64,000 nt of DNA from an uncultured Alphaproteobacteria bacterium (GCA_963742975.1 CAVUNZ010000025.1:20230-84229); one strand, 5' to 3'; shown: positions 5,885 through 28,034, numbered from the stretch's first letter. Made by a program: numbers and translations. The notes: generated from the sequence alone by a model not told the origin.

Positions 5885-6063
5885 TCTTTCTTTCTGGTGT
5901 GACGCCCGATTGCGGCGCGTGCTGCGTTTAGATCATGACGCATCCGGTTGGAAGGCAAAAAGCCGCGTGCATCTCGGCAAATTTTGCCGCAAGCCCGGCA
6001 TATCTGGCCTTAGCGGAGCCTCGCGCGTCTCCGTAAGCATCTGAAATAATTTATCTAATTGAG

Positions 6064-6078
6064 TGGCACGCAGCTTGC
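6064..6078 (+). promoter_or_regulatory. sigma-54 (-24/-12) promoter of flgE
   Basis: TGGCAC-GCAGC-TTGC is a perfect match to TGGCAC-N5-TTGC, about 85 nt upstream of the flgE ATG. Confidence 0.75.
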
Positions 6079-6163
6079 TGCAAGCTGTCCGGGTATGCGG
6101 CTGCCTTGGCGTCGTTGTGATTTCTCAGCCGCCGTCGTGTTGAGATCGAGTTGGAGACAAGTC

Positions 6164-8176
6164 ATGGGTATCTTCGATGCTTTGACCACCGCAGTGGCTG
6201 GTCTTCAGGCACAATCGTTCGCGCTGCAAAACATTTCCGGCAACATCGCCAACTCCCAGACCACCGGATACAAAGAAACCAACACCGCCTTTCAGGATCT
6301 GGTCAATCAAGCCGCGGTCAACTTGCAGACGCCCGACGGCGTTACCGCAAGCTCCATCGCCACCAATACGGTGCAAGGCTCAATCACAAGCACGTCGGTC
6401 GCGACCGATATGGCCATCAACGGCGATGGCTTTTTCGTCGTCTCCAAGCCGACGGGCTTTGTCGATAATCAGCCGACCTTCTCCGGCATCAACGACTATA
6501 CGCGTGCCGGCGATTTCACGATGAACAACAACGGCAACCTGGTCAACAGCGCCGGCTATTATCTGATGGGTATCCCGGTCGATCCGACCACCGGCAATCC
6601 CTTGGGCAGCGTTCCCGAGGTCTTGCAATTCAACAACAATTTCATTCCGGCGGTGGCGACGACATCCGTCAGCTATCAGGCCAACCTGCCGGCGACGCCC
6701 AAGTCGGGCGTCATCAACCCGAATAACTTTGAGGCCAATCCGTTGGCCGGCGCGCCCGTCGCCGCGGAGATCACCGGCAGCGGCGCGACGCTCCAACCGG
6801 ACGCCGCAGCCGTAGGCACCGGCACAGCGACCGGCCTCACCGGCGCTACGACGCTGGCGAGTCTCGGCATCAATGTGAACGATGTTATTTCGGTCAGCGA
6901 CGGCACCAATACGACGTCCTACACTGTGGGTGCAGGTGACACGATCAACACTCTGATGACCGCGATCAACGGCGGCACAGCGGCCGTCACCGCGTCGCTG
7001 TCGGGCGGCAACCTCGTTTTGACCGGAAATAACGATCTCGCCAGCGTCACGGTGTCCGGGACCAGCAACGACGCCACCGATCTCGGCTTCGGCGCTGGAA
7101 ACAACTCGTTTACACCGACCAATCTGCTGACCCAGAGCGCTGTGGCGCAGGGGCAGACCTTTGCCGTCGACGTTATACCTTCCGGCAGCACGGTCGGCAC
7201 GACGGAAACGCTCACCTTCGGCACCGGCGTCGGCCAGGTCGCCACACTGGCCCAATTGCAGACCACGCTGGTCGGCTTGGGCACCAGCAGCGGACTCTTC
7301 AGCGCGACGGTGAATACGGCCAACGGCGATGTGTCGTTGACTGCGACCAACCCGAGCGACAGCATGCAGCTCGTCGGCACCGCTTCGGCCACAAAATTCG
7401 GCATCGAGAATCTTACCGCACTGCCGGCCAGCGGCACCGTGGCTGGCGCCGATAACTCCACGTTCGACTCTGAATCGGTCGACGGCGGCTCCATCACCGC
7501 CTATGACGCAGTCGGCAATCCGGTCAATGTGCAGTTCCGCTGGGCGCAAGTGACGAGCTCGGCGAGCGGCAGCACATGGCAATTGTTCTATCAGAACAAT
7601 TCCTCGGCAACCGGCAGCACGGCGGCCTGGACCAATGTCGGGACCACCTTCACGTTCAACTCGAACGGCGAAATGTCGCCGCAGATCACGTCTCTGACGA
7701 TACCGGGCCTGTCGGTGAACGGCGACGATCTCGGCAACGTGCAGCTGCAGATCGGTACCGACGGCCTGACGCAGTTCGCCAGCACCAGCGGCACGGTGCA
7801 GGTCAATAATCTGCAGCAGAACGGTTATGCGGCGGGGTCGCTGCAATCGGTCTCGGTCGACAGCCAGAACCGCGTGGTCGGCAATTTCACCAACGGTCAG
7901 ACCATTCCGCTTGCCGAGGTCACCTTGGCGTCGTTCAATGGTACCGACTCCCTGCAGGCGCTCAATGGCGGCGCCTATGCCGCGACGCCGGAATCCGGCC
8001 CGCCGAATTACTCCGCGACCGGTAGCATCGAGGGCAGTTCGCTGGAATCCTCGAACGTCGATATCGCCACCCAGTTCAGCCAGCTCATCGTCGCGCAGCA
8101 GGCTTATTCGGCGAATGCTCGCGTCATGACGACCGCCAACCAGATGATTCAGAGCCTGCTCACGGTCATCCAATAG
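6164..8176 (+). CDS. flgE: flagellar hook protein FlgE (670 aa, large central insert)
   Basis: N-terminus MGIFDALTTAVAGLQAQ..NIANSQTTGYK and C-terminus ..QLIVAQQAYSANARVMTTANQM. ATG 6164 follows GGAGA. The longer TTG-started ORF from 6059 was rejected. Confidence 0.9.
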   Translation: MGIFDALTTAVAGLQAQSFALQNISGNIANSQTTGYKETNTAFQDLVNQAAVNLQTPDGVTASSIATNTVQGSITSTSVATDMAINGDGFFVVSKPTGFVDNQPTFSGINDYTRAGDFTMNNNGNLVNSAGYYLMGIPVDPTTGNPLGSVPEVLQFNNNFIPAVATTSVSYQANLPATPKSGVINPNNFEANPLAGAPVAAEITGSGATLQPDAAAVGTGTATGLTGATTLASLGINVNDVISVSDGTNTTSYTVGAGDTINTLMTAINGGTAAVTASLSGGNLVLTGNNDLASVTVSGTSNDATDLGFGAGNNSFTPTNLLTQSAVAQGQTFAVDVIPSGSTVGTTETLTFGTGVGQVATLAQLQTTLVGLGTSSGLFSATVNTANGDVSLTATNPSDSMQLVGTASATKFGIENLTALPASGTVAGADNSTFDSESVDGGSITAYDAVGNPVNVQFRWAQVTSSASGSTWQLFYQNNSSATGSTAAWTNVGTTFTFNSNGEMSPQITSLTIPGLSVNGDDLGNVQLQIGTDGLTQFASTSGTVQVNNLQQNGYAAGSLQSVSVDSQNRVVGNFTNGQTIPLAEVTLASFNGTDSLQALNGGAYAATPESGPPNYSATGSIEGSSLESSNVDIATQFSQLIVAQQAYSANARVMTTANQMIQSLLTVIQ

Positions 8177-8267: not shown

Positions 8268-10142
8268 ATGGGCATTAATCAGGCGCTGTCCGCCGCATTG
8301 TCCGGCATCGCGGTCACCCAGCAGGCCATTTCGGTCATCGCTGGCAACGTCTCCAATTCAAATACGGCCGGCTATGTCGATGAAAGCGTCAGGCAGTCCG
8401 AGCTCGGCACCGCCGGCAAGTCCGGGAGCAGTGTCGAAAGCGACGGCATCAATCGCAATCTCAATACGTTACTGCAGAGCCAGTTGTGGACTGAGACATC
8501 AGGCGGCTCTTATGCCGACACCGTGGCGCAGTTCTATCAGCAACTTCAGGATGTTTACGGCACGCCTGGATCGTCGACCTCGTTCGACGCGATGTTCAAT
8601 AATTTCACGACCGCGCTGCAGTCGCTGTCGACGAGCCCGAGCTCATATTCCAGCCAGTCCGAAGTCTTGAGCGCGGCGCAGTCGCTCGCGCAAAATCTCA
8701 ACTCCATGACGACCAGCGTCCAGGAGCTGCGCACGCAGACGGAAGCCGGGATTGCCACCGACGTGCAGAGCGCCAACGGTCTGTTGCAGAATATCGCGGA
8801 GATCAACACCAAGCTCGAGGGCACCGGTTCCAACCCCGACAGCACCGCGGCGGCGCTCGAGGATCAGCGCGACCAGGACATCACGCAGCTCGCCCAGCTG
8901 ATGAATGTCAACGTGATGCCGGGCTCCAATAATCAAGTCGCGGTCTATACCGGGACCGGGCTGCAGTTGGTGAGTGCGGGCCAGGTCTCGCAGCTGACGT
9001 TCGACAATGCCGGCACGCTGTCGGCGACGTCATTGTGGAGCGATGATCCGAGTCAGGACGGCGCCGGCACCATCACGCTCACCGCGCCGGGCGGCTCCAC
9101 CACTGATTTGATTTCAGACGGCGCCTTTCAATCGGGCCAGATCGGCGCCTATCTGCAGATGCGCGACACTATTCTGCCGCAAGCGCAGGCGCAGCTCGAC
9201 GATTTCGCCAATCAAATGTCGCAGGCTCTGTCGAACCAGACCGTCAATGGAACGGCGGCGAGCTCCGGCGGCCTGAATGGTTTTAGCGTCGACGTCGGCA
9301 GCCTGGTGGCGGGCAATACGGCCCAGTTCACTTATACCGACAGCAGCAACGTGCAGCACACGATCACGGTGGTCGATACGCCGCCGGGGACCTCGCTGCC
9401 GCAGCAGGCGTCGGCGTCGAATCCCAATAACACGACGATAGGTATCGATTTTTCCGCCGGCATAGGCTCGGTCGTCTCGCAGCTGAATTTCGCGTTCGGG
9501 TCGAAGCTGCAATTCTCCAATCCGTCGGGCACGATGCTGCAGGTGGTCAATGCCAACGGCAGCGGCAATGTCGTCAATTCATTGTCAGCGACGTCGACCG
9601 TCACGTCGCTGACCAGCGGCAGTCCGTCAGTGCAGTTGTTCGTCGACGGTATCCAGCCGATCACCGGCGCTTTGACGTCCACCGGCGGCACGCAAACGAC
9701 GGGCCTCGCCGGCCGCATCAGCGTGAATTCGGCGCTCCTCAATTCGCCTGGCAACCTGGTGGCTTATTCTGCGAGTACGACGGCCGGCGACGCGACCCGG
9801 CCGAGTTTCCTGCTGAATCAGATGACCACGGCGTCGCTGACTTATGCTGCGAGCACGGGGATCGGCACAGCGCAAGCGCCGTATAGCGGCACGCTGTCCC
9901 AGTATCTCAGCCAGGTCGTCAGCGTCCAATCGCAGGCGGCGAACGCCGCAACCAACCTGCAGCAGGGTCAGGACACGGTTCTGACCGCTCTGCAGCAGCG
10001 GTTTAACAGCCAGTCCGGAGTCAATATCGACACCGAAATGTCTAACCTCATCGCTCTGCAGAACGCCTACGCCGCCAATGCGCGGGTGATGTCCACCATT
10101 CAGAGCATGATGCAAACATTGCTGCACATAGGCGGCGGATAG
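8268..10142 (+). CDS. flgK: flagellar hook-associated protein 1 FlgK
   Basis: N-terminus ..GNVSNSNTAGY and C-terminus ..EMSNLIALQNAYAANARVMSTIQSM; 624 aa. Confidence 0.9.
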   Translation: MGINQALSAALSGIAVTQQAISVIAGNVSNSNTAGYVDESVRQSELGTAGKSGSSVESDGINRNLNTLLQSQLWTETSGGSYADTVAQFYQQLQDVYGTPGSSTSFDAMFNNFTTALQSLSTSPSSYSSQSEVLSAAQSLAQNLNSMTTSVQELRTQTEAGIATDVQSANGLLQNIAEINTKLEGTGSNPDSTAAALEDQRDQDITQLAQLMNVNVMPGSNNQVAVYTGTGLQLVSAGQVSQLTFDNAGTLSATSLWSDDPSQDGAGTITLTAPGGSTTDLISDGAFQSGQIGAYLQMRDTILPQAQAQLDDFANQMSQALSNQTVNGTAASSGGLNGFSVDVGSLVAGNTAQFTYTDSSNVQHTITVVDTPPGTSLPQQASASNPNNTTIGIDFSAGIGSVVSQLNFAFGSKLQFSNPSGTMLQVVNANGSGNVVNSLSATSTVTSLTSGSPSVQLFVDGIQPITGALTSTGGTQTTGLAGRISVNSALLNSPGNLVAYSASTTAGDATRPSFLLNQMTTASLTYAASTGIGTAQAPYSGTLSQYLSQVVSVQSQAANAATNLQQGQDTVLTALQQRFNSQSGVNIDTEMSNLIALQNAYAANARVMSTIQSMMQTLLHIGGG

Positions 10143-10152
10143 TAGGTTCAAC

Positions 10153-11661
10153 ATGAGTATTACCGGACCAGGCTCGGTGACTGCGGCCACTGTCATAGCG
10201 CAGAACAACATGATGACTGAGCTCGACTCGCTCGCTCAGGAACTCGGCACCGGTCAGGCGGCGCAAACCTATTCCGGGCTGCAATCGCAGGCCGGCATGG
10301 TGCTGTCGCTGAATGCCCAGCTCGCGGCGATCAATGGCTATAGCAACACGGCATCGACCGTGAGCACGACGCTGGATATTGCGCAATCCTCGTTGACCGA
10401 GCTCGGCACGCTCGGGACGACAATCCAGCAAGAGGTCACCGATCAGCCGACCTTCAATCTCGACAGCAACGGCCAGACCACGGTCCAGGTTGCCGCGGCA
10501 AGTCAGCTCGACGAGATGCTCTCGTTGCTCAACACCCAGGTCGGCACCAATTACATCTTCTCGGGCAGTGCGCTGAACCAGCCGGCCGTGGCCAGCACCA
10601 GTCAAATTCTCAACGGCACCGGCGCACAGGCCGGGCTGACGCAGATCGTCAACGAGCGCCAGCAGGCCGATCTCGGCGCCACCGGCATGGGCCGGCTCAG
10701 CGTCGCGACATCAGGCAGCACGGTGACGCTGAGTCAGGACGGTACGCCGTTCGGATTTCAGCTCACGGGCGTGAGCCCAAGCCTGACCGGCGCGACGGTC
10801 ACCGGGCCGTCCGGCTCGCCGCCGACGATCTCGATGGCGCTCGGCTCGAATCCGAATGACGGCGACACAATTTCGTTTCAACTCACGCTGCCCGACGGCT
10901 CGACCCAGACCATTTCGCTGCAGGCGACATCGTCCGCCACGCCGGGAAACGGTCAATTCAGCATCGGCGCAACGACCGGGGCCACCGCCACCAATCTGCA
11001 GAATGCGCTCACCAGCGCCATCACCAATCTGGCGCAGACCGCGCTGCCGGCGGCATCGGCGATGGAGGCGGGCAACAACTTCTTCTCATACCCGCCGCAG
11101 ATCGTCGTTCCCGGCGCCGGCAACAATTATCAGACAGCTACGTCCTTAACTAACGGCACCGCGGCCAATACCGTGATCTGGTACACCGGCGAAAACGGCG
11201 CAACCCCGTCGCGACAGACCCAATCCGCGGTGGTCGCTCCGTCGACGACCATCGATTACGGCATGCGCGCCAACGAACCGGCGATCACCAATCTGATCAA
11301 GAATGCCGCGGTGCTCGCGGCGACGACCTATTCGCCGACCAATACCAACGCGCAAGCGGTCTATCAGACGCTGTGCCGGGCGGTCGAGGGCAATCTCAGT
11401 CCGCCGTCGGGCACGCAGACGATCGCCGATATCGAATCCGATGTCGCCAATGCACAGACCACGGTGGCCAATGCCACGAAGCTCAATACGCAGACCCAGA
11501 CCACGCTGAGCGACATTCTGAACAATGTCGACGGCGTCAACCAGACTCAGGTCGGCGAGCAGATCCTGACATTGCAGAACAGCCTTTCGGCTTCGATGTC
11601 GGTCACGGCGCGGCTCGCGCAGCTCAGCCTGACCAATTACCTCGCGCCGGTTTCGGGATAG
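10153..11661 (+). CDS. flgL: flagellar hook-associated protein 3 FlgL (flagellin-like junction protein)
   Basis: Lies immediately after flgK. Flagellin-like helical N and C termini (..LQNSLSASMSVTARLAQLSLTNYL); 502 aa. Confidence 0.8.
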   Translation: MSITGPGSVTAATVIAQNNMMTELDSLAQELGTGQAAQTYSGLQSQAGMVLSLNAQLAAINGYSNTASTVSTTLDIAQSSLTELGTLGTTIQQEVTDQPTFNLDSNGQTTVQVAAASQLDEMLSLLNTQVGTNYIFSGSALNQPAVASTSQILNGTGAQAGLTQIVNERQQADLGATGMGRLSVATSGSTVTLSQDGTPFGFQLTGVSPSLTGATVTGPSGSPPTISMALGSNPNDGDTISFQLTLPDGSTQTISLQATSSATPGNGQFSIGATTGATATNLQNALTSAITNLAQTALPAASAMEAGNNFFSYPPQIVVPGAGNNYQTATSLTNGTAANTVIWYTGENGATPSRQTQSAVVAPSTTIDYGMRANEPAITNLIKNAAVLAATTYSPTNTNAQAVYQTLCRAVEGNLSPPSGTQTIADIESDVANAQTTVANATKLNTQTQTTLSDILNNVDGVNQTQVGEQILTLQNSLSASMSVTARLAQLSLTNYLAPVSG

Positions 11662-11713
11662 GCTGACGCCCAATAATGGAAGGCAACTTGCGCGCCAGGC
11701 GGGCACGCAGGCG

Positions 11714-12640
11714 CTATTCGCTGTTGTCCGTCCGGACGAAGATCGAGTCGGCGGCGCAGGTCGCGTTGCGGCCGAAATTGTCGGTAAATCGCGTATCGAC
11801 GAGGTAGCGGCCGGGATGGGCGGTAAGAAATGCGCGAAGCGCCTCGCGTTTGACGTCGCTGTCCTCGACCACGAGATAGTCTCCTAGCGTAAGATAAGAA
11901 TGCATGTGCGCGATCACCGCCGCCACATTATGGTGCGCGTCCTCGACCACGAGCCAGGGATGCGGCGCAGACTGCAGCAATTCGGCTGCAAACAAAGTCT
12001 GCGGCGCCGCGCAATCGCCCTGATAGAAGCTGACATGCGGATATTCCGCGTCGACCTTAACCCGGTCGACTGAATGGACATGGCCGTCGACGCCGTTCAT
12101 CGCCAAATGATCGGCGAACCAGACCGCGCTCGCGCCGAGGCCCGAGCCGATTTCGAATACCGTGCGCGGGCGGAGCTCTGCGATCAGCGTCGGATACATG
12201 GCGAAATCGAAGACGTTCTTCATCAGCGGCACACCGCGCCAGCGCATCAGCGAAGGCGCGCCCTGGCAGGTCAGCAGCACGTCGGCGCCGAATTCGGTGC
12301 CAAATCGCGGGTGGTAATGCGCGCCGGACTGCTCACGCCGGGAAAACTCGACAAAGCGGCCCTGCCGGTGGCGGTCGAGAAACAGCCGCAACCGTTGCAA
12401 ATCCCAAAGCAGGCCCTGGAATCGCGCGGGTTCGCGCGCGGCATTTTCGCGGACGCTGTCCTCCCAGGCGCGCGCCGGGTCGAAGCTGACGAGCTGGGTG
12501 AGGACGCGGGTGAACCAGCTGTCGAAAATGCTGTGCAGGCCGTGCTGCTCGCGCGCGACTTTCTCCCGCATTTCGCCGGTGAAGCGCAGCGCGGCGGCCT
12601 TCAGCTCGTCGCCGGAAATCAGTTCGAGCGCGTCGGTCAT
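11714..12640 (-). CDS. CmcI-family (cephalosporin hydroxylase / sugar O-methyltransferase-like) class I SAM methyltransferase
   Basis: WRGVPLMKNVFDFAMYPTLIAELRPRTVFEIGSGLGASAVWFADHL ... VVEDAHHN ... YLVVEDS matches the CmcI signature as I remember it. Confidence 0.7.
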   Translation of the reverse strand: MTDALELISGDELKAAALRFTGEMREKVAREQHGLHSIFDSWFTRVLTQLVSFDPARAWEDSVRENAAREPARFQGLLWDLQRLRLFLDRHRQGRFVEFSRREQSGAHYHPRFGTEFGADVLLTCQGAPSLMRWRGVPLMKNVFDFAMYPTLIAELRPRTVFEIGSGLGASAVWFADHLAMNGVDGHVHSVDRVKVDAEYPHVSFYQGDCAAPQTLFAAELLQSAPHPWLVVEDAHHNVAAVIAHMHSYLTLGDYLVVEDSDVKREALRAFLTAHPGRYLVDTRFTDNFGRNATCAADSIFVRTDNSE

Positions 12641-12777
12641 GACGCCGCCGACCCTAGAAAGTCATGGTAAACAAAATGCTTACGCAGCGCCCGCCGCAAA
12701 CGAACCGTTAACCATAGCGATCTACGTTGGTTTTCAACGGTTTGGGGCCAGAATCTGGACGGCTTTTGGGGGGCGAT

Positions 12778-14355
12778 ATGTGCGGCATTGCGGTAGCCAT
12801 CGATTGGGATGGCGCTGAGACGGCGGTTCAACACCTGATCGCGGGCATGCTGCATCGCGGCGACGTCACCGATCCCCCGATCACGATCAGCAAGGGCACC
12901 GCGATGTGCACGCGCCGCCTGCGCATCGTCGATGCGCAGAACGGGATGCAGCCGAAGGCGTCTTTCGACGACCGCTTCCTCGTCGCCTTCAACGGCGAAA
13001 TCTACAATCACGTCGAGTTGCGGCGTGAACTCGAAGCGCGCGGCGTTAAGTTTCACAGCGGCTGCGACACCGAAGTGGTCGCCAATGTGCTGCGGGTCTT
13101 CGGCCCCACCGGGATCAAGCGGCTTTCCGGCATGTTTGCCTTTGTCGCACTCGACGTGATGACCGGTGAATTCCTCGCCGCGCGCGATCCGTTCGGCGTC
13201 AAGCCGCTCTATCTGATCCAGACGCCCGAAGCTCAGGCGCGCAAGGGCTTCTTGTTCTGCTCCGAGATCAAGCCGCTGTTGCAGGCGACCGAAAGCGGTG
13301 ACGTCATGTTGCTGCCGCCGGGCCATGCGCTGACGGGCAATTTTTTTGGGCGCTATTACAATCTGCCGTCCCCGGCACCGGCGAGCGTAGCTTGGGGCGC
13401 GGCTGTGCCGCAGGATCTGGACCGCATCCTTGCCGAAGCCGTGCGCGTGCGCGTGCCGCCGGATCTGCCGGCCGCAGCGCTGTTCAGCGGCGGCATCAAC
13501 TCGACCCTCATCATGCATTACGCGCGGCGCTTCTGCCCCGATATGCCCGGCTATATCGCCGTCGGCCGCGGCTCGCCCGATTATCTCTTCGCGCGGCATT
13601 ATGCCGAGGAGACCAGTCTCGATCTGCGCGAGGTCGCAATCGATACCCATGACGCAAAGACGCTGCCGCTCATCGCCACGGTGGTCGAGACCGTGGAGAC
13701 TTTCGAGCCGGCGGTGGTTCGGCCGAGCTTCCACACTTATCTGCTGTCGCAGCGCATTCATCAGGACGGTTTCCGCGTCGCCTTGTGCGGCGAGGGCGCC
13801 GATGAATTATTCGCCGGCTATTCGCCGCTCGAGCTTGCCTTTTCGCAGGCGAACGGTCAGGGCCGCTATCTGCAGGCGCAATGTCTGGGCATGATGCATC
13901 GCGCTAATCTGCAGCGGGTCGATCGCTGTTCGATGCATTTCCAGCTCGAAATCCGCGAACCGTTTCTCGATCAGGCCGTCGTCAACTATGCGGCAGGCCT
14001 TGATAAATCGGCTCTGGTGAAGCGTTCCGGCAATGCCGTCCCGGTCGGCAAGGCGCCGTTGCGCGCGATCTACGACCTTTATCCTTCGCAGCTGCCGATC
14101 AGCATCAGAGACCGCGACAAAATGCTGTTCAACGAAGGCGCCGACGGCGATGTGGAACGATCGGGCTGGCTCGATCTGTTCGAACAGGCGGTGTCGGACG
14201 CCGATTTCCGCGACGGCCAACGTCAATTCGCAGCCTTCGGCGTCACCACCAAAGAAGAGCTGTTCTATATTCGCGCGCTTGCCGCCAGGATGGATGTGAA
14301 CCGTATTCCGCATCTGCGCGGGCGGCTCCGCTTGGACATGCCGCGGGCCGCCTGA
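12778..14355 (+). CDS. asparagine synthase (glutamine-hydrolysing)-family amidotransferase
   Basis: Starts MCGI (Ntn Cys2), with NGEIYN and CDTEV in the GATase domain and a SGGINS PP-loop. ATG 12778 sits behind a G-rich RBS. Confidence 0.85.
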   Translation: MCGIAVAIDWDGAETAVQHLIAGMLHRGDVTDPPITISKGTAMCTRRLRIVDAQNGMQPKASFDDRFLVAFNGEIYNHVELRRELEARGVKFHSGCDTEVVANVLRVFGPTGIKRLSGMFAFVALDVMTGEFLAARDPFGVKPLYLIQTPEAQARKGFLFCSEIKPLLQATESGDVMLLPPGHALTGNFFGRYYNLPSPAPASVAWGAAVPQDLDRILAEAVRVRVPPDLPAAALFSGGINSTLIMHYARRFCPDMPGYIAVGRGSPDYLFARHYAEETSLDLREVAIDTHDAKTLPLIATVVETVETFEPAVVRPSFHTYLLSQRIHQDGFRVALCGEGADELFAGYSPLELAFSQANGQGRYLQAQCLGMMHRANLQRVDRCSMHFQLEIREPFLDQAVVNYAAGLDKSALVKRSGNAVPVGKAPLRAIYDLYPSQLPISIRDRDKMLFNEGADGDVERSGWLDLFEQAVSDADFRDGQRQFAAFGVTTKEELFYIRALAARMDVNRIPHLRGRLRLDMPRAA

Positions 14356-14516
14356 ACGTTAGCGGCGCTTAAAACCGGATACAGAGACGCGCCCGGCCTA
14401 CGGACGTCCTGCGTGATCAGGCGCTCGCGCAATGGCGCAACCGCGGCTCCAGGACAAAACCCCAAGACAAAGATATAAAATGCGGATTGGTGTGGCTTCG
14501 GTGCGCGGGGCTGCGT

Positions 14517-14882
14517 TTAGCGCTTGTCGCGCAGGCCGGCGGCAAGGCCGCGATTGATCTTGATGATCGATTTCAGATGGTCCGGCTTCGGCTTGGTCAT
14601 CATCGAGAAAGTCTCGGCCATGACATAGACGCCGAGCCGTCTGATGTTATCGCGAACCTGCTTCGGCAGCCTGTTGGTTTCGTTTGTCACTGCGTCGAGA
14701 AACACCGTCCACAGCCGGCGATTATAGAGCAGTGCTTCGTCGAGGCCGCGCGGCTTGTCAGACCAGGAATCGTGAACGGCCTGCAATTTCGCAGCGGCTT
14801 GCAGCAGCAAATTGGCCTCGAGCTCACGCGGCGACGCCGTCTCAACATTGGTCTTGGCATAGGCGTTGACGGCGTGACGCAT
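14517..14882 (-). CDS. flaF: FlaF flagellar regulator, if translated from the internal ATG
   Basis: Internal ATG 14882 is preceded by AAGGAA. 121 aa, FlaF-like N-terminus AYAKT..ASPRELEA. Confidence 0.6.
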   Translation of the reverse strand: MRHAVNAYAKTNVETASPRELEANLLLQAAAKLQAVHDSWSDKPRGLDEALLYNRRLWTVFLDAVTNETNRLPKQVRDNIRRLGVYVMAETFSMMTKPKPDHLKSIIKINRGLAAGLRDKR

Positions 14883-15257
14883 CTTCAGATGTTCCTTTTC
14901 GTAGGCAATAAGCTTGCGCGCTTCCTTTAAAGCTTTATACGGATCGCCTGTTAAGATTAGGTTGTTGATGCTTTCGATAAAGGGTTCGGCGCTCGGCGCG
15001 GCCTTGAGGAATTCGTCCGCCAGCCGGAAATAGAGCGCGTGGTGCTCTTTCGGGTTCTTGGCCGTGTAAATGAACTGGACAGCGAGATAAATGAGCTTCG
15101 CCAGGCTGTCGGCGCGGCCCAGCGTCATGATGTCCTTTTCGCGCAGGATACGAACCTGGCCTTCGATCTTCAGGCGCGTGCGGGAGCCGGCGTTGGTGAC
15201 AACGCAGTCGCCGAGCAGGATCCGCTCGTTCGGCTTGAGTTCGATTTTTAGGGCCAC
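14517..15257 (-). CDS. flbT: continuous ORF encoding FlbT (flagellin translational regulator) fused in frame to FlaF
   Basis: GTG 15257 lies behind AAGGA. (V)ALKIELKPNERILLGDCVVTN..ILREKDIMT..AKLIYLAVQ is the FlbT part. There is no stop before MRHAVNAYAKT..PRELEANLLL (the FlaF part). Confidence 0.7.
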   Translation of the reverse strand: MALKIELKPNERILLGDCVVTNAGSRTRLKIEGQVRILREKDIMTLGRADSLAKLIYLAVQFIYTAKNPKEHHALYFRLADEFLKAAPSAEPFIESINNLILTGDPYKALKEARKLIAYEKEHLKMRHAVNAYAKTNVETASPRELEANLLLQAAAKLQAVHDSWSDKPRGLDEALLYNRRLWTVFLDAVTNETNRLPKQVRDNIRRLGVYVMAETFSMMTKPKPDHLKSIIKINRGLAAGLRDKR

Positions 15258-15313
15258 GGGACAAATTCCTTGTTGCGAATCCTCGCCGCGCATCAGCATC
15301 GTTGCGCATCGTG

Positions 15314-15470: not shown

Positions 15471-16631
15471 TTAGCCGAACAGTTTGAGCACCGACTGGTT
15501 CGCCTGGTTGGCGATGGACAGTGCCGAGATTTCGAGCTGCTGCTGGGTCTGTTCGGTGAGCAGGTTGGCGCTCTCCTGGTTCTGGTCGGCGACGACCAGA
15601 TTGGTGGCGCCGGTCTGCAGCGTGTTGATCAGCGCCGTCTCGAAGGTCTGCCGGGTCGAGATGGTCGAGGCATTGGTGCCGAACGTCTCGGTCTGGCTCT
15701 GCACCGTCGCCAGCGCGGCATTGATGTTCGCCACCACGGTTGCGAGCTGATTGTCAGACTGGAAGGATGTCCCGCCCGAGCCGGCGATCGCCGACAGGCC
15801 GAGCCCTGCGGCATTGAAGGTTACGCCGGTGATGGTCAGCGAACTGGTGCCGGTCGGATTGAAATCGATGGTCAAGCTGTCGCCCTGCAACAGGTTGACG
15901 CCGTTATAGCCGGAGTCGGCGGCGAGCTGACTGATCTGCGTCAGGAGGCCGTTGTAGTTGCTCTGCAGCGTGCCGCGCGTCGAGCTCGAGCCGATGGCGA
16001 CAGTGTTGGTGGTGGAGTTGGTCGCCACACCCAGCGCCGCCGAAGTGGCACTGCCCACAACGGTGAAGCCGATCGGCGGCTCATTGGAGTTCAGGACCAG
16101 GTGACCCGAGCCGTCGTCGGTCGCGGTCACGATGCCGTTGCTGCCGAGCCCGGTCGTGCCGTTGATGTCGGCCTCGACTTCGCTCAGCGTCGCGCTGGCG
16201 GCGATCGTGACGTTGTAGGTCGACGAACCGACATCGATGCTGAGCGTGCCGGCGGCGAGGCTGACGTTGGCGGTGGTGAGGCCCAAGCTGGTCCCGGTGC
16301 CGGTCGTCGTGGCTGCTACGGTCCAGCTCGCGGACTGCGCTTGTTGCACTGTCGACAGCGCCTGCTGCAAGAGACTGGTCAGGCTGGTGAGGCCGTTGGT
16401 GGCTTGTTGGATGGTTGACGAGCCTTGACCGATCTGGTCGAGCAGCGCGCTCAATGAATTGGCGGTCTGCGTCAAGCTCTGCGAGGTGAAATAGGAGCTT
16501 GGATTGTCGGCGGCGGAGTTGACCTTCTTGCCGGTCGCCAAGGCTTCCTGGGTGGTCGTTAGATCGTTCGACGTCTGCTGCAATGACAGCAGATTCTGCC
16601 GAATGCCGGTAGTGAGAGTAATATCAGACAT
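15471..16631 (-). CDS. flagellin (386 aa)
   Basis: N-terminus MSDITLTTGIRQNLLSLQ..ALATGKKVNSAADNPSSYF and C-terminus ..LSIANQANQSVLKLFG. Confidence 0.95.
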   Translation of the reverse strand: MSDITLTTGIRQNLLSLQQTSNDLTTTQEALATGKKVNSAADNPSSYFTSQSLTQTANSLSALLDQIGQGSSTIQQATNGLTSLTSLLQQALSTVQQAQSASWTVAATTTGTGTSLGLTTANVSLAAGTLSIDVGSSTYNVTIAASATLSEVEADINGTTGLGSNGIVTATDDGSGHLVLNSNEPPIGFTVVGSATSAALGVATNSTTNTVAIGSSSTRGTLQSNYNGLLTQISQLAADSGYNGVNLLQGDSLTIDFNPTGTSSLTITGVTFNAAGLGLSAIAGSGGTSFQSDNQLATVVANINAALATVQSQTETFGTNASTISTRQTFETALINTLQTGATNLVVADQNQESANLLTEQTQQQLEISALSIANQANQSVLKLFG

Positions 16632-16950: not shown

Positions 16951-18108
16951 TTAGCCGAACAGCTTGAGCACCGACTGGTTGGCTTGGTTGGCGATCGACA
17001 GCGCCGAGATTTCCAGCTGCTGCTGGGTCTGCTCGGTGAGCAAGTTGGCGCTTTCCACGTTCTGGTCGGCGACGACCAGGTTGGCGGCGCCGGTCTGCAG
17101 GGTGTTGATCACCGCGTTTTCGAAGCCCTGCCGGGTGCTGATGGTCGACGCGTTGGTGCCGAAGGTTTCGGCCTGCGTCTGCACGGTCGAGAGCGCCGCG
17201 TTGATGCTGGTGACCAGGCTCGAGAGCGTGCTGTCCGACTGGAACGACGTCGCGCCGGAGCCGGAGGTCGCCGACAGGCCGAGACCGGCGGCATTGAAGG
17301 TCACGCCGCTGATGGTCAGTGCGCTGGTGCCGGTCGGGTTGAAGTCGATGGTCAAGCTGTCGCCCTGCAACAGATTGACGCCGTTATAACCGGCGTCGGA
17401 CGCGAGCTGACTGACCTGCGTGAGCAGCGTGTTGAAGTTGCTCTGCAGCGTGCTGCGGGTCGAGCTGGAACCGATCGCGACGTTGTTGGTGGTCGAGTTG
17501 GTCGCCACGCCCAGCGCCGCCGAAGTGGCATTGCCCACAACGGTGAAGCCGATCGGCGCGTTGTTGGAGGTCAGGACCAGGTGACCCGAGCCGTCGTCGG
17601 TCGCGGTCACCGAGCCCGTGCTGCCGAGCCCGGTCGTGCCGTTGATGTCGGCCTCGACTTCGCTCAGCGTCGCGCTGGCGGCGATCGTGACGTTGTAGGT
17701 CGACGAACCGACATCGATGCTGAGCGTGCCGGCGGCGAGGCTGACGTTGGCGGTGGTGAGGCCCAAGCTGGTCCCGCTGGTCGTCGTGGCGGCGGTGGTC
17801 CAGTTCGAGGACTGCGCCTGTTGCACCGTCGACAAAGTCTGCTGCAGCAGGCTGGTGAGGCTGGTGAGGCCGTCGGTGGCCGCGTTGATGGTTTGCGAGC
17901 CCTGGCCAATCTGGTCGAGCAGCGAGCTCAGATTGTTGGCGCTCTGGGTCAAATTCTGCGAGGTGAAGTAGGAGCTCGGATTGTCGGCAGCGGAGTTGAC
18001 CTTCTTGCCGGTCGCCAGCGCTTCCTGAGTGGTGGTCAGGTCGTTGGACGTTTGCGTGAGGGCAAGCAGGTTGGACCGGATGCCCGAGGTTAAGGTGACG
18101 TCAGACAT
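16951..18108 (-). CDS. flagellin paralogue (385 aa)
   Basis: Collinear with the 15471-16631 protein and shares its N and C termini. Confidence 0.95.
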   Translation of the reverse strand: MSDVTLTSGIRSNLLALTQTSNDLTTTQEALATGKKVNSAADNPSSYFTSQNLTQSANNLSSLLDQIGQGSQTINAATDGLTSLTSLLQQTLSTVQQAQSSNWTTAATTTSGTSLGLTTANVSLAAGTLSIDVGSSTYNVTIAASATLSEVEADINGTTGLGSTGSVTATDDGSGHLVLTSNNAPIGFTVVGNATSAALGVATNSTTNNVAIGSSSTRSTLQSNFNTLLTQVSQLASDAGYNGVNLLQGDSLTIDFNPTGTSALTISGVTFNAAGLGLSATSGSGATSFQSDSTLSSLVTSINAALSTVQTQAETFGTNASTISTRQGFENAVINTLQTGAANLVVADQNVESANLLTEQTQQQLEISALSIANQANQSVLKLFG

Positions 18109-18370
18109 AGTTACTACCCTTCTGGTTACAGGCCGTACTGGCGCGCACCGGCGTTGCTACTTCTGTAGGCGCGAGTGCGTTGTCCGATCAGACTGATCGG
18201 TGGCCAAAGGTTTGCCGCATTTCATTTAAGGACGGGTAAAGCCGGGCAGTTTTTGCTCGTAGGCAAATTGTGCAGCGCATCCAAAGCACTTAACCCGCGC
18301 TAGGCCAATGCCGCGCGAAGCCGCGCCACTGCGGAGTTTTTCACGCATGAGGCGGCGCGCGCGTTAAATG

Positions 18371-18385
18371 TTAACCGGCCATTAT
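18371..18385 (+). promoter_or_regulatory. CtrA-box-like site (TTAA-N7-TTAT)
   Basis: TTAACCGGCCATTAT lies about 100 nt upstream of ATG 18485. TTAATCAT follows at 18406-18413. Confidence 0.3.
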
Positions 18386-18484: not shown

Positions 18485-19309
18485 ATGTTGAAAATGCCAA
18501 CAACAGATGCCGGTGCTGCGCAATTGTCCGGCGTGGGATTTTCCGCGCCGCTCCAGCCGACGCCGCCGAGCGTCAATCTTGTCGTCGCCACCCCGTGTTT
18601 CGGTGGGCAAATCTCGGTCGTCTATGCGGCATCGCTGATGAAGCTGCAGAAACTGGTCCGCTCCTACCGCGACTTCGGCATCAAAACGCTGTTCAAGGAC
18701 GGTGACGCGCTTATCACCCGCGCTCGGGCGAGCCTGGTCGCGCAATTTCTCGACGATCCGAGCGCGACGCATCTTCTCTTCATCGACGCTGATATCGGCT
18801 TTGAGCCGCAGCAGGTGCTGCGCCTCATCGAATGCGGCGCCGACATGTGCGCTGCAGTCTATCCGATCAAGCGGATCGACTGGGACAAGGTCAAGGACAC
18901 GCTCGCAGCCGGCCGGCCCAATCCGGCGGCGGCGGCGCTGCAATATGTATTCGAAGTCGATGATCCCAATGCCGTGACCGAGAAGGCCGGATTCATCAAA
19001 GTCCGCTACGCCGGCACCGGGCTCCTGATGATCCGGCGCGAGGCGTTAGAACGTATGTGCGCGCATTATCCGGAGCTGCGCTTCAAGCACGACCACTCGC
19101 TCGATGCCGCGACCGCAAGCGACAACCGCTTCGCTTTGTTCGACACCATGATCGACGACGCGGGAATGTATCTGAGCGAGGATTTTGCTTTTTGCAGGCG
19201 CTGGACCGCCATGGGCGGCGAGATCTGGGCCGATCTCGACAGCAAGCTCCAGCATACCGGTCCGATGACGTTCAACGGCGATCTGTCATCGCAATTCATC
19301 GCAGCCTAG
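18485..19309 (+). CDS. putative GT-A-type glycosyltransferase (family not identified)
   Basis: 274 aa. The pattern ATPCFGG..ITRARASLVAQFL..THLLFIDADIGF (a DxD-like DAD after a beta strand) is typical of GT-A folds. The call comes from that pattern only. Confidence 0.4.
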   Translation: MLKMPTTDAGAAQLSGVGFSAPLQPTPPSVNLVVATPCFGGQISVVYAASLMKLQKLVRSYRDFGIKTLFKDGDALITRARASLVAQFLDDPSATHLLFIDADIGFEPQQVLRLIECGADMCAAVYPIKRIDWDKVKDTLAAGRPNPAAAALQYVFEVDDPNAVTEKAGFIKVRYAGTGLLMIRREALERMCAHYPELRFKHDHSLDAATASDNRFALFDTMIDDAGMYLSEDFAFCRRWTAMGGEIWADLDSKLQHTGPMTFNGDLSSQFIAA

Positions 19310-19324: not shown

Positions 19325-20110
19325 TCAGGCGATCAGATTGACCAGGCTGCCGCTGGCGCCGGAAGACGCCAGAAGCGACGCGGCGCTGGTGGCATTGTGT
19401 GTAAAGGTGCTCTCCAGGCCCGCGGTACTGCTCTTCGTCGAGGTCGAACTCGTGCTCGAACTGCTTGTGGTCGACGATGCGGTCGAAGCTGCGGGCTTGC
19501 TGGCCGGGGTGGGCTTGAAAGTCTGATTGCCGACAGCAAAGCCGATATTACTGGCATAGACGCCGTTGACGCTGATCTGATCGTTGGTGTTTTTGCTGGT
19601 AAGGACGATATTGCCCTTGCTGTTGAGCGTGGCGCTCACTTGGGCGTTGTCCGGCAGGTTGGTATTGATCGTGCTGAGCAGATTGCCGACCGTATCGCTG
19701 CCGGTCGAGGTAAAGGCCGTGGTTTTGCCGTTGGCGCTGACATAGACCGAGCCGCCTTGCGGTATGCCAAGCGTCGAGAGCGGCGTGCTCACCGAAACCG
19801 ACACCTTTCCGGTGCCGACCGCCGGCTTGGCCTTTGTCGCTGCTGCGGAGCTGGAGTTCGTGGAGGACGTCGTCGTTCCGGTTCCGCCGGTGAGGATGCT
19901 CTGAATTTCGGCAGTGATCTGGTTATTGGTGCGCGTCAGCGCTTTGCCGTTGGCAATCGACGCAAGGCCTTTGCCGAGATTGGTTTCGGCGGCGCCCATG
20001 GCGCTGATAAGGGAGTCCGTCGCCGCTAAGGACGAGCTCCAGCGTCCGGTGACCGAACCCCAGGAACTCGCGGCCGACTGCAAAAGCGCACCGATATTGC
20101 TGACGCTCAT
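19325..20110 (-). CDS. Ser/Thr-rich protein of unknown function carrying a flagellin/hook-type variable-domain module
   Basis: 261-aa ORF with no signal peptide. Long S/T tracts flank ..GKTTAFTSTGSDTVGNLLSTINTNLPDNAQVSATLNSKGNIVLTSKN.., which aligns with the flagellin central domain. Confidence 0.6.
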   Translation of the reverse strand: MSVSNIGALLQSAASSWGSVTGRWSSSLAATDSLISAMGAAETNLGKGLASIANGKALTRTNNQITAEIQSILTGGTGTTTSSTNSSSAAATKAKPAVGTGKVSVSVSTPLSTLGIPQGGSVYVSANGKTTAFTSTGSDTVGNLLSTINTNLPDNAQVSATLNSKGNIVLTSKNTNDQISVNGVYASNIGFAVGNQTFKPTPASKPAASTASSTTSSSSTSSTSTKSSTAGLESTFTHNATSAASLLASSGASGSLVNLIA

Positions 20111-20204
20111 TCCAACAATTACCTAGCCGGACCCACTGCCGCCCTGAAGCTTCATGCGCCTGGTTCGGTTAATATCCGGTATCGCCGCGTCTGGTTACCT
20201 TTGA

Positions 20205-20212
20205 TTAACCAT
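20205..20212 (+). promoter_or_regulatory. CtrA half-site TTAACCAT upstream of TPR-glycosyltransferase 1
   Basis: Exact 8-mer about 118 nt upstream of ATG 20330, in the spacer shared with the divergent Ser/Thr-rich gene. Confidence 0.35.
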
Positions 20213-20329
20213 CTTGGCCGACGCTGTTCCGGCGCGATAACGGCTGGCGGTTCGACGACAATAAGCTGCCGCGAAGGCCGGGGTCGCGCGCGTGCGATTT
20301 TGCCCGCCTGCCTTCCGGTGACGCCAGCC

Positions 20330-22846: not shown

Positions 22847-24456
22847 GGACGGCGCAGGCGGAAGCAGAGCCGCCGCTGCCCAAGTCAAGCAACATTGCAC
22901 CTAACATCACGCAAGCTTTTGCGCATTATCAGCAAGGCCGGCTTGCGGACGCCGAGACGATCTGCAACGCGATCCTTGCCGCCGAGCCCGAACAGTTCGA
23001 CGCCCTGCATCTGCTTGGTCTGCTGCGCCATGCGCAGAAGCGTAACGCGGAGGCGCTGCAACTCGTCGGTGCAGTGCTCAAACGTGCGCCGCGATCCGCG
23101 GAAGTGCTGAGCAATTACGGACTCGTCCTTGCCGCGCTGAGCCGCCACGAGGAGGCATTGGCATGTTTCGACGAGGCGGTTCGCCACAGCGGGGACTATC
23201 TCAATGCACTGCGGAACCGCGCCGCCGCACTCAAATCTCTCGCGCGCGATGAAGAAGCGCTCGTCGCCTTCGAGGCGATCCTGGCAACGAAGGGCGACGA
23301 TATCGACGCGCTGAACGAATGCGGCGGCCTTCATATGCAACTCGGACAGCCCGATGCCGCGGTTGCCTGCTATGACAGAGCGCTGGCCGCGGCGCCGCGG
23401 GTGGTGGAGCTTCACGTCAACAAGGGCAGCGCACTCGCCACCGTGAACCGCTTTGCCGAAGCTTTGCAAAGTTTTACCGCCGCGATGACGATAGATCGGC
23501 AATGCGCCGACGCCCATCATCGGGCAAGCCTTATCCGCTTGCGGTCCGGCGACTTCAAGCGCGGCTGGCGTGACTACGAGTGGCGCTGGCGCACTCAGCG
23601 CACCGTGAAACGGCGAGAGGTCGCCGCGCCGTTGTGGCTGGGCGATCAGCCGATCCAAGGCAAAACCATATTGCTGCTCGCCGAGCAGGGCTTTGGCGAC
23701 ACCATCCATTTCGCCCGTTATGCGCCGCTCTTAGCCGCGCTCGGCGCGACTGTAATCCTCGATGTGCCATCGCCACTCAAGGAGATCGCGGCGAGCGTTC
23801 CCGGCGTGTCATGGGTGCTGGGTGATGGCGAACGGGCGCCGCCGATCGATTTTTATTGTCCGCTGATGAGCCTACCGCTCGCCTTCCAGACCGAGACCGC
23901 GACCATACCGGCGAACATTCCCTATATCCGCCCATCTGCGGAGCGCCTCGCGAAGTGGCGCGCCAGATTGCCGCGAAACGGCCGTCTGCGGATCGGCTTG
24001 TGCTGGGCCGGCAGCGCCACGCATCTGAACGATCATAATCGCTCCATCGCACTTGAGCGCCTTGCCGGGATTTTATCGCTGCCCAATCTCGACTTCATCA
24101 GCGTGCAAAAGGACGTCAGCGAGCCACAGGCCGCTTTCCTGCAGAGCTATAGTGTCGCTCAACTTGGCCAGAGTTTTGAGAATTTTGCCGACACGGCCGC
24201 AGCTCTTGCCGAGCTCGATCTTCTCGTTTCGGTCGACACGTCGGTCGCCCACCTGGCCGGCGCCATGGGCAAGGCGGTCGCGCTCTTACTGCCGTTGCCG
24301 GCGGAATGGCGGTGGCTGCTCGATCGCAGCGACAGTCCTTGGTATCCGAGCATGCGGTTGTTTCGGCAGATCGCGATCGGCGACTGGGATGGCCCGCTCG
24401 AGCAGCTCTATCGCGAGCTCAGCGCCGTCGCTGCGCGGCGTCCGGCAGCGTCCTAG
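22843..24456 (+). CDS. TPR + GT9-like glycosyltransferase, paralogue 2
   Basis: Its ATG overlaps the stop of paralogue 1 (ATGA at 22843-22846). It has the same C-terminal motifs (EQGFGDTIHFARYAPL, IPANIPYIRP, VDTSVAHLAGAMGKAVALLLP). Confidence 0.8.
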   Translation: MRTAQAEAEPPLPKSSNIAPNITQAFAHYQQGRLADAETICNAILAAEPEQFDALHLLGLLRHAQKRNAEALQLVGAVLKRAPRSAEVLSNYGLVLAALSRHEEALACFDEAVRHSGDYLNALRNRAAALKSLARDEEALVAFEAILATKGDDIDALNECGGLHMQLGQPDAAVACYDRALAAAPRVVELHVNKGSALATVNRFAEALQSFTAAMTIDRQCADAHHRASLIRLRSGDFKRGWRDYEWRWRTQRTVKRREVAAPLWLGDQPIQGKTILLLAEQGFGDTIHFARYAPLLAALGATVILDVPSPLKEIAASVPGVSWVLGDGERAPPIDFYCPLMSLPLAFQTETATIPANIPYIRPSAERLAKWRARLPRNGRLRIGLCWAGSATHLNDHNRSIALERLAGILSLPNLDFISVQKDVSEPQAAFLQSYSVAQLGQSFENFADTAAALAELDLLVSVDTSVAHLAGAMGKAVALLLPLPAEWRWLLDRSDSPWYPSMRLFRQIAIGDWDGPLEQLYRELSAVAARRPAAS

Positions 24457-27949: not shown

Positions 27950-27965
27950 TTAAGGTTTTGTTTAC
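27950..27965 (+). promoter_or_regulatory. CtrA-box-like site (TTAA-N7-TTTAC) upstream of TPR-glycosyltransferase 3
   Basis: TTAAGGTTTTGTTTAC lies about 70-85 nt upstream of 28035. One mismatch to the consensus. Confidence 0.3.
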
Positions 27966-28034
27966 CAAACATCTTTACCGACCGTTAAGGAACCGGGCGG
28001 CGTCACGTGCTGCGCCGGCAAGCTGGTCGCGGTC

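Follow-up and report, generated by a model that had tools for sequence, protein, structure and literature searches.

A CmcI-type methyltransferase and an AsnB-like amidotransferase as candidate tailoring enzymes in the flagellar cluster of an uncultured soil alphaproteobacterium

The glycosylation of flagellin is well described for systems that rely on nonulosonic acids (Maf, FlmG) and for a few other sugars. PseA, known from Campylobacter, is a PP-loop enzyme that is not known to have an Ntn glutaminase domain. Here, we examine a stretch of 64,000 nucleotides, termed the window, which is part of contig C25 in the genome of an uncultured soil alphaproteobacterium (GCA_963742975.1, CAVUNZ010000025.1:20230-84229; assembly of 5.3 Mb, 99.5% complete) and which holds an alphaproteobacterial flagellar cluster. 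We particularly focus on two divergent genes that lie between flgL and a fused flbT-flaF open reading frame (ORF). One encodes a CmcI-family methyltransferase of 308 aa (11714-12640, minus strand; PF04989) and the other an AsnB-like amidotransferase of 525 aa (12778-14355, plus strand; GATase_7 and Asn_synthase domains), and a divergent spacer of 137 bp with two conserved elements (12641-12777) separates them. An initial annotation had described such a pair of enzyme genes at this place, and we confirmed both ORFs, their coordinates and their motifs.

Several described systems come close to this locus. In Caulobacter, the FlmG pathway comprises six pseudaminic-acid enzymes and neither a methyltransferase nor an amidotransferase (PMC7591256). 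WbpS, WbqG and PGN_1234 are AsnB-like enzymes that turn uronic acids into uronamides, and PGN_1234 does so on the sugar linking the cargo proteins of T9SS (type IX secretion; PMC7468200). In Tannerella forsythia, the protein O-glycosylation cluster contains asnB together with three methyltransferases (mtfJ/O/Y) that were shown to methylate the glycan (PMC6120980). In the literature, we found nothing relevant that links CmcI, or asparagine synthase or synthetase, to flagellin glycosylation.

We propose that the two genes belong to a module that modifies the flagellar surface, in which their products would serve as accessory tailoring enzymes, and glycan tailoring is the best reading of their function, with a probability of about 0.5. 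Both enzymes probably decorate the flagellar surface, and the module would be composed of the methyltransferase, the AsnB-like enzyme, three FlmG-like tetratricopeptide repeat (TPR) glycosyltransferases and an enzyme of GT-A fold. The methyltransferase would rely on S-adenosylmethionine (SAM) and on a divalent metal that it binds for the O-methylation of a hydroxyl with a second oxygen ligand beside it, most likely on a sugar of the flagellin or hook glycan or on its activated precursor. The AsnB-like enzyme would hydrolyse glutamine at Cys2, then adenylate a carboxylate at its PP-loop and convert it to an amide, the target being probably a carboxyl on the same glycan or precursor and not free aspartate for protein synthesis. 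Family, fold, the conservation of catalytic residues, synteny and purifying selection are observed; these substrates, and the flagellum as the target, we infer.

The linkage of the methyltransferase to the flagellum is well supported by synteny. Pattern scans with one genome per species yielded 94 distinct loci carrying a methyltransferase of at least 59% identity, all in Xanthobacteraceae-like metagenome-assembled genomes (MAGs) of uncultured bacteria, and their neighbours were scored by tblastn with the neighbour proteins of the window. The methyltransferase gene is found in a flagellar cluster in 81 of these loci and in a non-flagellar context in the other 13. Over the 94 loci, the genes adjacent to it are flgL, convergent and on the 3' side (57 loci), flbT/flaF, co-directional and on the 5' side (40), the AsnB-like gene, divergent (21), and orf18485, the gene of the GT-A-fold protein, co-directional and directly upstream (14). 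The methyltransferase gene often lies within about 100 bp downstream of flaF. These counts therefore define a usual layout in which the flagellins, flbT/flaF and the methyltransferase succeed each other on one strand, facing flgL; the methyltransferase would be the stable member of the module that is, in most relatives, probably transcribed with flbT-flaF. In the clade of the window, flaF and the methyltransferase gene are separated by the AsnB-like gene, which is inserted on the opposite strand. Since the methyltransferase gene directly follows flaF in the usual layout, it is the AsnB-like gene alone that has the look of an insertion. The idea that both genes were inserted between the flagellar operons thus stands for the AsnB-like gene, but not for the methyltransferase gene, which is co-directional with flbT-flaF and the flagellins. 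Of the 81 flagellar clusters, 44 contain the AsnB-like gene, at various positions, and the two genes do not obligatorily occur together. The expected conservation across relatives is therefore a property of the methyltransferase, which is strongly flagellar, but not of the pair.

The histories of the two genes can be followed in maximum-likelihood trees. A single clade (support 100/100) unites the 90 alphaproteobacterial methyltransferases; its earliest branches all carry an AhpC/TSA-2OG-Fe(II) oxygenase fusion, and within it non-flagellar copies are nested among flagellar ones. The AsnB-like proteins of flagellar clusters also form one clade (25/25, support 100), which is nested in an alphaproteobacterial group on a long branch. 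The other members of this group, with 54-64% identity and among them Rhodopila globiformis, Roseiarcus, Pseudolabrys and Rhizomicrobium, are found in non-flagellar contexts; a long branch of 1.2 substitutions per site parts this group from other AsnB-like proteins. This single nested clade suggests one capture of the AsnB-like gene, followed by repeated losses or relocations, and within the module the gene would be a facultative add-on that the cluster acquired once and repeatedly lost. The dN/dS values are of 0.11-0.20 for both genes, against 0.15-0.25 for flgL, which means that both are under purifying selection similar to that acting on flgL.

One or both genes could nonetheless be passengers that have no flagellar function and sit in a permissive insertion site between operons. 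We consider this very unlikely: although the slot between the methyltransferase gene and flgL is variable and also houses insertion sequence (IS) elements and other inserts, although the AsnB-like gene is frequently absent and its non-flagellar relatives lie in unrelated contexts, and although some non-flagellar methyltransferase copies are nested inside flagellar clades, the methyltransferase gene has persisted in the flagellar cluster through many rearrangements and in lineages as distant as about 60% identity, often within about 100 bp after flaF, under purifying selection and with a conserved upstream element. The variability of the slot is visible across MAGs (for example at L086:4353-10700), where it contains TPR-glycosyltransferase genes, a 2-oxoglutarate (2OG) oxygenase, small ORFs and ORFs that are IS-like, judging from the N-terminal part of the sequence alone. 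No new tailoring enzyme turned up among these inserts.

The CmcI-like nature of the methyltransferase, initially deduced from motifs, is borne out by profile search. The ORF carries EIGSGLGASAVWFADHL and VVEDAHHN, and its residues 132-265 match PF04989 (RMNT_CmcI) with 57.8 bits, above the gathering threshold of 23.2 bits (E=1.7e-15). By sequence, CmcI is the only solved relative that was found (PDB 2BR3, E=5e-17). The AlphaFold2 (AF2) model, with a pLDDT of 90.2, places a five-helix N-terminal bundle ahead of a Rossmann core, so that the protein is laid out as a subfamily-specific helical N-terminal domain (residues 1-130) and a Rossmann methyltransferase core (132-303). When this model is searched with Foldseek, the top 16 matches are CmcI chains (E down to 3e-13, target TM 0.64-0.71), and the lower ones are mostly metal-dependent O-methyltransferases (COMT, and the sugar enzymes MycE and SpnK), along with further SAM methyltransferases such as EgtD and TrmR. 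Of these, MycE and SpnK provide a precedent for the metal-dependent O-methylation of sugars.

The active site can be compared with that of CmcI residue by residue. The segments EIGSGLGAS, VVEDAHHN and VVEDS align with ELGVYNGGS (the SAM loop), IDDAHAN and IIEDM of CmcI, respectively, and D234, E259 and D260 align with D160, E186 and D187. A metal role can be assigned to D160 because the titles of the PDB entries contrast 'cmcI-D160 Mg' with 'CmcI-N160', and in the published structure E186 and D187 presumably have metal roles as well. Across 17 diverse members, with identities down to 29%, E163, G165, G167, G169, D192, D234, E259 and D260 do not vary. In the same alignment, Q32, R95 and R102 are invariant and D40 nearly so, all four in the N-terminal region that is not found in CmcI. 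The protein is thus probably a SAM-dependent O-methyltransferase, with Mg2+ as its probable metal. Its score against the rhamnosyl O-methyltransferase equivalog NF045824 is 53.4 bits, below the cut-off of 400. The gene is single-copy in its own genome. Among 1.84 billion cluster representatives, 186 proteins match the methyltransferase at E<=1e-30, many of them over their full length at about 40-46% identity, which defines a distinct subfamily of about 300 aa.

The neighbours of this subfamily point to a second possible function. Its most constant non-flagellar partner is a fusion of an AhpC/TSA-redoxin domain and a 2OG-Fe(II)_Oxy_3 domain (about 380-400 aa; hereafter AhpC-2OG), which adjoins the methyltransferase gene in all 13 non-flagellar loci and is present in 8 flagellar clusters (the two genes are side by side in L020, L024, L051, L054, L057, L058, L060, L084 and L094-L101). 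In L098, L099 and L101, the order is flgEKL-2OG-GT-A-methyltransferase. The AsnB-like gene and the AhpC-2OG oxygenase occur together in none of the loci. In the genome of the window, two AhpC-2OG copies lie away from the flagellar genes (C4:290197-291411 and C19:9956-11200), both within a near-identical duplicated segment that could be an assembly or haplotype artefact; their neighbours are a diaminobutyrate-decarboxylase-like gene, a TPR gene and a large ORF for a putative outer-membrane receptor. The more distant relatives of the methyltransferase (38-48% identity) have mixed and mostly uninformative contexts, except for the following ones. A subfamily member lies beside a Cupin_8/JmjC oxygenase in a gammaproteobacterial MAG (L232:7871-8881), another beside a diiron beta-hydroxylase of the CmlA type in a Cytophagales MAG (L206:5309-6958), and in two Planctomycetota MAGs a member is found near two GT4 glycosyltransferases and an AsnB-like gene, an arrangement that serves as a precedent for glycan tailoring. 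The recurrence of hydroxylases of three unrelated classes beside relatives of the methyltransferase is new here and echoes the CmcJ/CmcI couple. It suggests that the subfamily may generally cap hydroxyls that were enzymatically installed.

Given this pairing, a hydroxyl made by a hydroxylase, and not a sugar hydroxyl, could be the target of the methyltransferase. The enzyme would then be the methylating half of a hydroxylase/O-methyltransferase pair performing a CmcJ/CmcI-like methoxylation, and it would act on an oxygenase-installed hydroxyl carried by a residue of a flagellar protein or by a small-molecule precursor, instead of a native sugar hydroxyl. This hydroxylase-coupled role is the main rival of glycan tailoring and a serious alternative, even if we hold it to be unlikely. 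The adjacency of AhpC-2OG in the 13 non-flagellar loci and its presence in 8 flagellar clusters, the oxygenases of all the earliest branches in the 90-member clade and the Cupin_8/JmjC and CmlA-type enzymes beside distant members all speak for it. However, 73 of the 81 flagellar clusters have no oxygenase within 8 kb, and the cluster of the window has none either, the two AhpC-2OG copies of the genome being elsewhere. The GT-A neighbour can be read both ways, as the top matches of its fold are the hydroxylysine glycosyltransferases LH3 and COLGALT1, but its model is only moderately confident and top matches of GT-A folds can be generic.

For the AsnB-like enzyme, the initial claim of an asparagine-synthase-type amidotransferase with an MCGI start and an SGGINS PP-loop agrees with the domains and motifs that we find. 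The ORF was first listed as 12727-14355 on the plus strand, but the ATG at 12778 (MCGIAV...) is the real start, since 105 of 120 homologues open with MCGIA. The protein matches PF13537 (GATase_7, 1.9e-34) and PF00733 (Asn_synthase, 9.7e-39) and, as a protein of the E. coli type, it combines a class-II (Ntn) glutamine amidotransferase and an adenylating PP-loop synthetase in one fused chain. It does not reach the NCBIfam cut-offs for AsnB (273 against 499 bits for NF006949, and 260.1 against 267.1 for TIGR01536), while the NF006949 alignment spans residues 1-502, end to end. Its best solved structure is 1CT9, and we compared its residues with those of 1CT9 and 104 family members. Cys2 is present (MCGI), and the glutaminase residues R49, N74, G75, E76 and D98, as well as the synthetase-site residues E348, D351, E352, R387, K429 and K449, are conserved in 105/105 sequences.

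Other positions have changed over the whole clade: S346 is replaced by C, T321/T322 by A/V-V/I (V at position 322 in 97/105) and D384 by N (103/105). The Thr-Thr motif ETYD(V/I)TT(I/V)R is thus not kept, and the window has ETFEPAVVR instead. In human ASNS, the alpha-amino group of aspartyl-AMP has its pocket at E364, D367 and D400, which are E348, D351 and D384 in E. coli, and T336 is conserved across kingdoms, its change to isoleucine almost abolishing activity (PMC6748925). By our own residue numbering, T336 would correspond to the altered Thr-Thr position of the AsnB-like clade. We considered a clear loss of the aspartate-binding residues and rejected it, as the acidic cluster is still there. 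Catalytically, the scaffold thus appears competent, and its acceptor site, though altered, still resembles an amino-acid site; since the acidic residues are kept, the sequence does not tell which substrate is used. One change is specific to few copies. The PP-loop of the window is SGGINS (13486-13503), with the Asn codon AAC at 13498-13500 (D238 to N), whereas SGG(I/V/L)DS is found in 103/105 relatives and in 8/8 close loci that were checked. The substitution is probably real, because one independent cluster (P0122, 89% identity) has the same Asn.

The proposed analogy with PseA turned out to be loose. The window protein is an AsnB of the E. coli type and carries an Ntn glutaminase domain, and no sugar-amidotransferase model matched it. 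Indeed, its 9 NCBIfam matches (E<=0.01) include no model for N-acetyl-sugar amidotransferases of the PseA/WbpG type, a model that we take to be part of that library.

Could the AsnB-like gene simply be a genuine asparagine synthetase, housekeeping or supplying asparagine, that happens to reside in the flagellar cluster? Two other full-length AsnB-family genes exist in the genome, one of 640 aa that scores 492 bits on TIGR01536 and another for an N-acetylglutaminylglutamine (NAGGN) amidotransferase that scores 961 bits. In tblastn with E. coli AsnS, no asparaginyl-tRNA synthetase (AsnRS) was found in the genome; the one weak match, an ORF on contig C16, is an aspartyl-tRNA synthetase (AspRS; 826 bits, against a cut-off of 443). 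Free asparagine could then not be charged onto tRNA, which argues against both the housekeeping and the asparagine-supply roles of the AsnB-like gene. Asn-tRNA is probably made by transamidation, for which GatCAB would be responsible. A housekeeping AsnB role is thus unlikely, as no AsnRS was detected and two other AsnB paralogues are available.

The genuine synthetase is, in our estimate, quite unlikely. It would account for the full-length E. coli-type architecture (273 bits on NF006949 over residues 1-502), for a TIGR01536 score barely under its cut-off, which non-flagellar orthologues (Rhodopila globiformis, L103) exceed at 284-295, and for the retention of the glutaminase residues and of E348, D351, E352, R387, K429 and K449; the external flagellar proteins are also rich in asparagine (7.4-8.8%), which a supply role would fit. 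However, the genome has only an AspRS and no detectable AsnRS, another AsnB paralogue scores better, the clade has replaced Thr-Thr by A/V-V/I and D384 by N, the window copy adds the D-to-N change in the PP-loop, and the flagellar copies are one clade that was retained in a rearranging flagellar cluster.

We now turn to the genes that surround the pair. The candidate tailoring genes adjoin the flagellin genes, TPR proteins with GT9-like C-termini and a GT-A-fold protein, which is the neighbourhood of a glycosylation island. The two flagellin genes (15471-16631 and 16951-18108, minus strand) lie upstream of flbT-flaF on the same strand, and they begin about 1.1 kb from the methyltransferase/AsnB-like pair. 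The three TPR proteins, whose C-termini are weakly GT9-like, are encoded at 20201-22846, 22774-24456 and 28035-29651. The GT-A-like gene, orf18485 (18485-19309, plus strand), encodes a protein of 274 aa that belongs to no family. The presence of these TPR-glycosyltransferases and of the GT-A-like gene, as initially described, was verified, and Foldseek confirmed the GT-A fold. The orf18485 protein has no Pfam or NCBIfam match, and a profile search against PDB sequences was empty. Its AF2 model has a pLDDT of 69, and its best Foldseek matches are the glycosyltransferase domain of LH3, STIV A197 and COLGALT1 (E ~1e-6, TM 0.40-0.46). It is found in 66 of the 81 flagellar loci and has more than 5,000 relatives, among which every named one of the 120 listed is annotated as hypothetical. 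We also considered orf18485 as a hidden oxygenase akin to AhpC-2OG; this was rejected, as BLASTP similarity is nil and the fold search gives GT-A.

Several points must be held against glycan tailoring. Genes of sugar-nucleotide pathways were looked for in the window and none was found. Throughout the genome, tblastn with E. coli queries returned no NeuB, NeuA or NeuC, other pathways not having been searched genome-wide, and the same search found the KdsB control at 43% identity. As a consequence, no carboxylated sugar donor is identified. The flagellar sugar is therefore probably not a nonulosonic acid; the FlmG-like enzymes here probably use none, and the donor known from FlmG in Caulobacter, which is of the Pse/Leg type (PMC7591256), is probably absent. 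Outside flagellar clusters, the relatives of the methyltransferase pair with hydroxylases and not with glycosyltransferases. The two genes are uncoupled, the AsnB-like one being absent from 37 of the 81 clusters, and its presence or absence requires at least 8 changes on the methyltransferase tree. The AsnB-like protein retains the acidic cluster E348, D351 and E352, by which ASNS binds aspartyl-AMP at its alpha-amino group (PMC6748925), so an aspartate-like acceptor is possible, and the PP-loop Asn may weaken adenylation by the copy of the window. Lastly, this protein is far below the cut-off of the WbpS family (TIGR03108, 174.8 against 816.9 bits, with residues 1-171 as the best stretch).

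A broader scheme can be drawn, which we regard as speculative and improbable. It is a route for flagellin or hook modification, encoded in the flagellar cluster of these soil Xanthobacteraceae, that uses no nonulosonic acids and whose logic is otherwise that of cephamycin methoxylation and of the modification of collagen and Skp1. First, a hydroxyl would be made by an oxygenase, which some lineages encode in cis; the GT-A enzyme, similar to hydroxylysine glycosyltransferases, and the FlmG-like enzymes would glycosylate, and the CmcI-type enzyme would add a methyl cap to a hydroxyl. The derivative of E. coli-type AsnB, where one large clade has it, would amidate an amino-acid-like carboxylate. 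If true, flagella would have a post-translational chemistry of a new class.

The spacer between the two genes deserves a few words. It contains CCGTTAACC at 12705-12713 and TTTGTTTACCAT at 12664-12675 on the minus strand, some 25 nt upstream of the ATG of the methyltransferase gene. An alignment of the spacers of ten loci has GGTTAAC and TTT.TTTACC as invariant blocks, the conserved blocks being GGTTAAC and TTTTGTTTACCAT. With one mismatch, the 12-mer is found again at 27957-27968, upstream of the third TPR-glycosyltransferase gene, but this recurrence (2 in the window) is not significant, as 26/100 shuffles equal it. The motif TTTGTTTACCA(T/A) is thus upstream of both the methyltransferase gene (12664-12675) and the third TPR-glycosyltransferase gene (27957-27968), and elements of the GGTTAAC type are found in the spacer (12705-12713) and upstream of orf18485 (~18364-18376). 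The 12-mer and the GGTTAAC elements may mark a common regulator, perhaps CtrA-like, although statistics do not support it; the resemblance of the spacer elements to CtrA half-sites is one that we infer ourselves. A scan of 11500-14700 for sigma-70 promoters and terminators gave nothing above shuffles.

As for the rest of the cluster, flgL (hook-associated protein 3; 10153-11661, plus strand) comes after flgE (6059-8176, plus strand) and flgK (8268-10142, plus strand) and is convergent with the methyltransferase gene. The fused flbT-flaF ORF (14517-15299, minus strand) encodes 260 aa, in which Pfam places FlbT at residues 17-137 and FlaF at 145-256. FlbT and FlaF are a single ORF in the window and in its closest relatives, and two genes in many other loci; a second and separate FlaF-like gene is also found in the same genome (C3:116113-116475, 64% identity). 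A Ser/Thr-rich ORF is located at 19325-20110 on the minus strand, and the Ser+Thr content of the flagellins and hook proteins is of 24-31%. Further genes of the window are flgI, rod genes, fliM, fliP and flhB.

What could these enzymes bring to our understanding of flagella? A large and abundant clade of uncultured soil Alphaproteobacteria carries FlmG-like enzymes with no detectable NeuB-type synthase, along with conserved and unusual partners: a CmcI-type methyltransferase, a GT-A protein not assigned to any family and, as an optional addition, an AsnB derivative or a 2OG oxygenase. Should these enzymes decorate the filament, they would represent a new flagellar glycan chemistry, and two orphan enzyme subfamilies would gain a testable function. 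This could then bear on phage recognition, on sensing by plants or protists and on the stability of the filament in soil. The pairing of the CmcI subfamily with three kinds of hydroxylases is a useful lead for annotation on its own.

Compared with CmcI of Streptomyces clavuligerus (2BR3/2BR4/2BM8), the methyltransferase has in common the Rossmann SAM core, the Gly-rich motif and the equivalents of D160, E186 and D187. However, identity is only about 25%, some 130 residues precede the aligned core against 55 in CmcI, and the window has a flagellar context and no beta-lactam genes. CmcI and CmcJ carry out the 7-alpha-methoxylation of cephamycin, and many relatives of the window methyltransferase likewise adjoin an oxygenase, but their partner oxygenases are of families other than that of CmcJ (AhpC-2OG fusion, Cupin_8 and CmlA-type). 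The mycobacterial rhamnosyl O-methyltransferase (NF045824), which also belongs to PF04989, provides a precedent for sugar O-methylation in the family, although the window protein is not an equivalog. The AsnB-like protein shares the two-domain architecture and the length class of E. coli AsnB (1CT9) and human ASNS (6GQ3), and differs from them in lying under both NCBI cut-offs, in its long branch, in having N for D238 and in the changes of Thr-Thr, D384 and S346. WbpS, WbqG and PGN_1234 are AsnB-like enzymes of glycan clusters, and their conversion of a sugar carboxylate to an amide is the chemistry proposed here. They are of about 630 aa, compared with 525 aa here, with a match restricted to the glutaminase domain; as the window protein lies outside the WbpS family, this is a resemblance of function and not membership. 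Campylobacter PseA shares only the idea of a tailoring enzyme inside a flagellar locus. In the Tannerella cluster, an AsnB-like gene likewise accompanies methyltransferases in a protein-glycan setting, but this is in Bacteroidota, with the S-layer and other general targets, a Pse pathway, an AsnB of 605 aa and methyltransferases that are not reported as CmcI-type. Finally, the Caulobacter FlmG system differs by its nonulosonic-acid genes, NeuB/A/C homologues being undetected here, whereas it likewise has TPR-glycosyltransferase genes beside an alpha-type flagellin, flbT and flaF.

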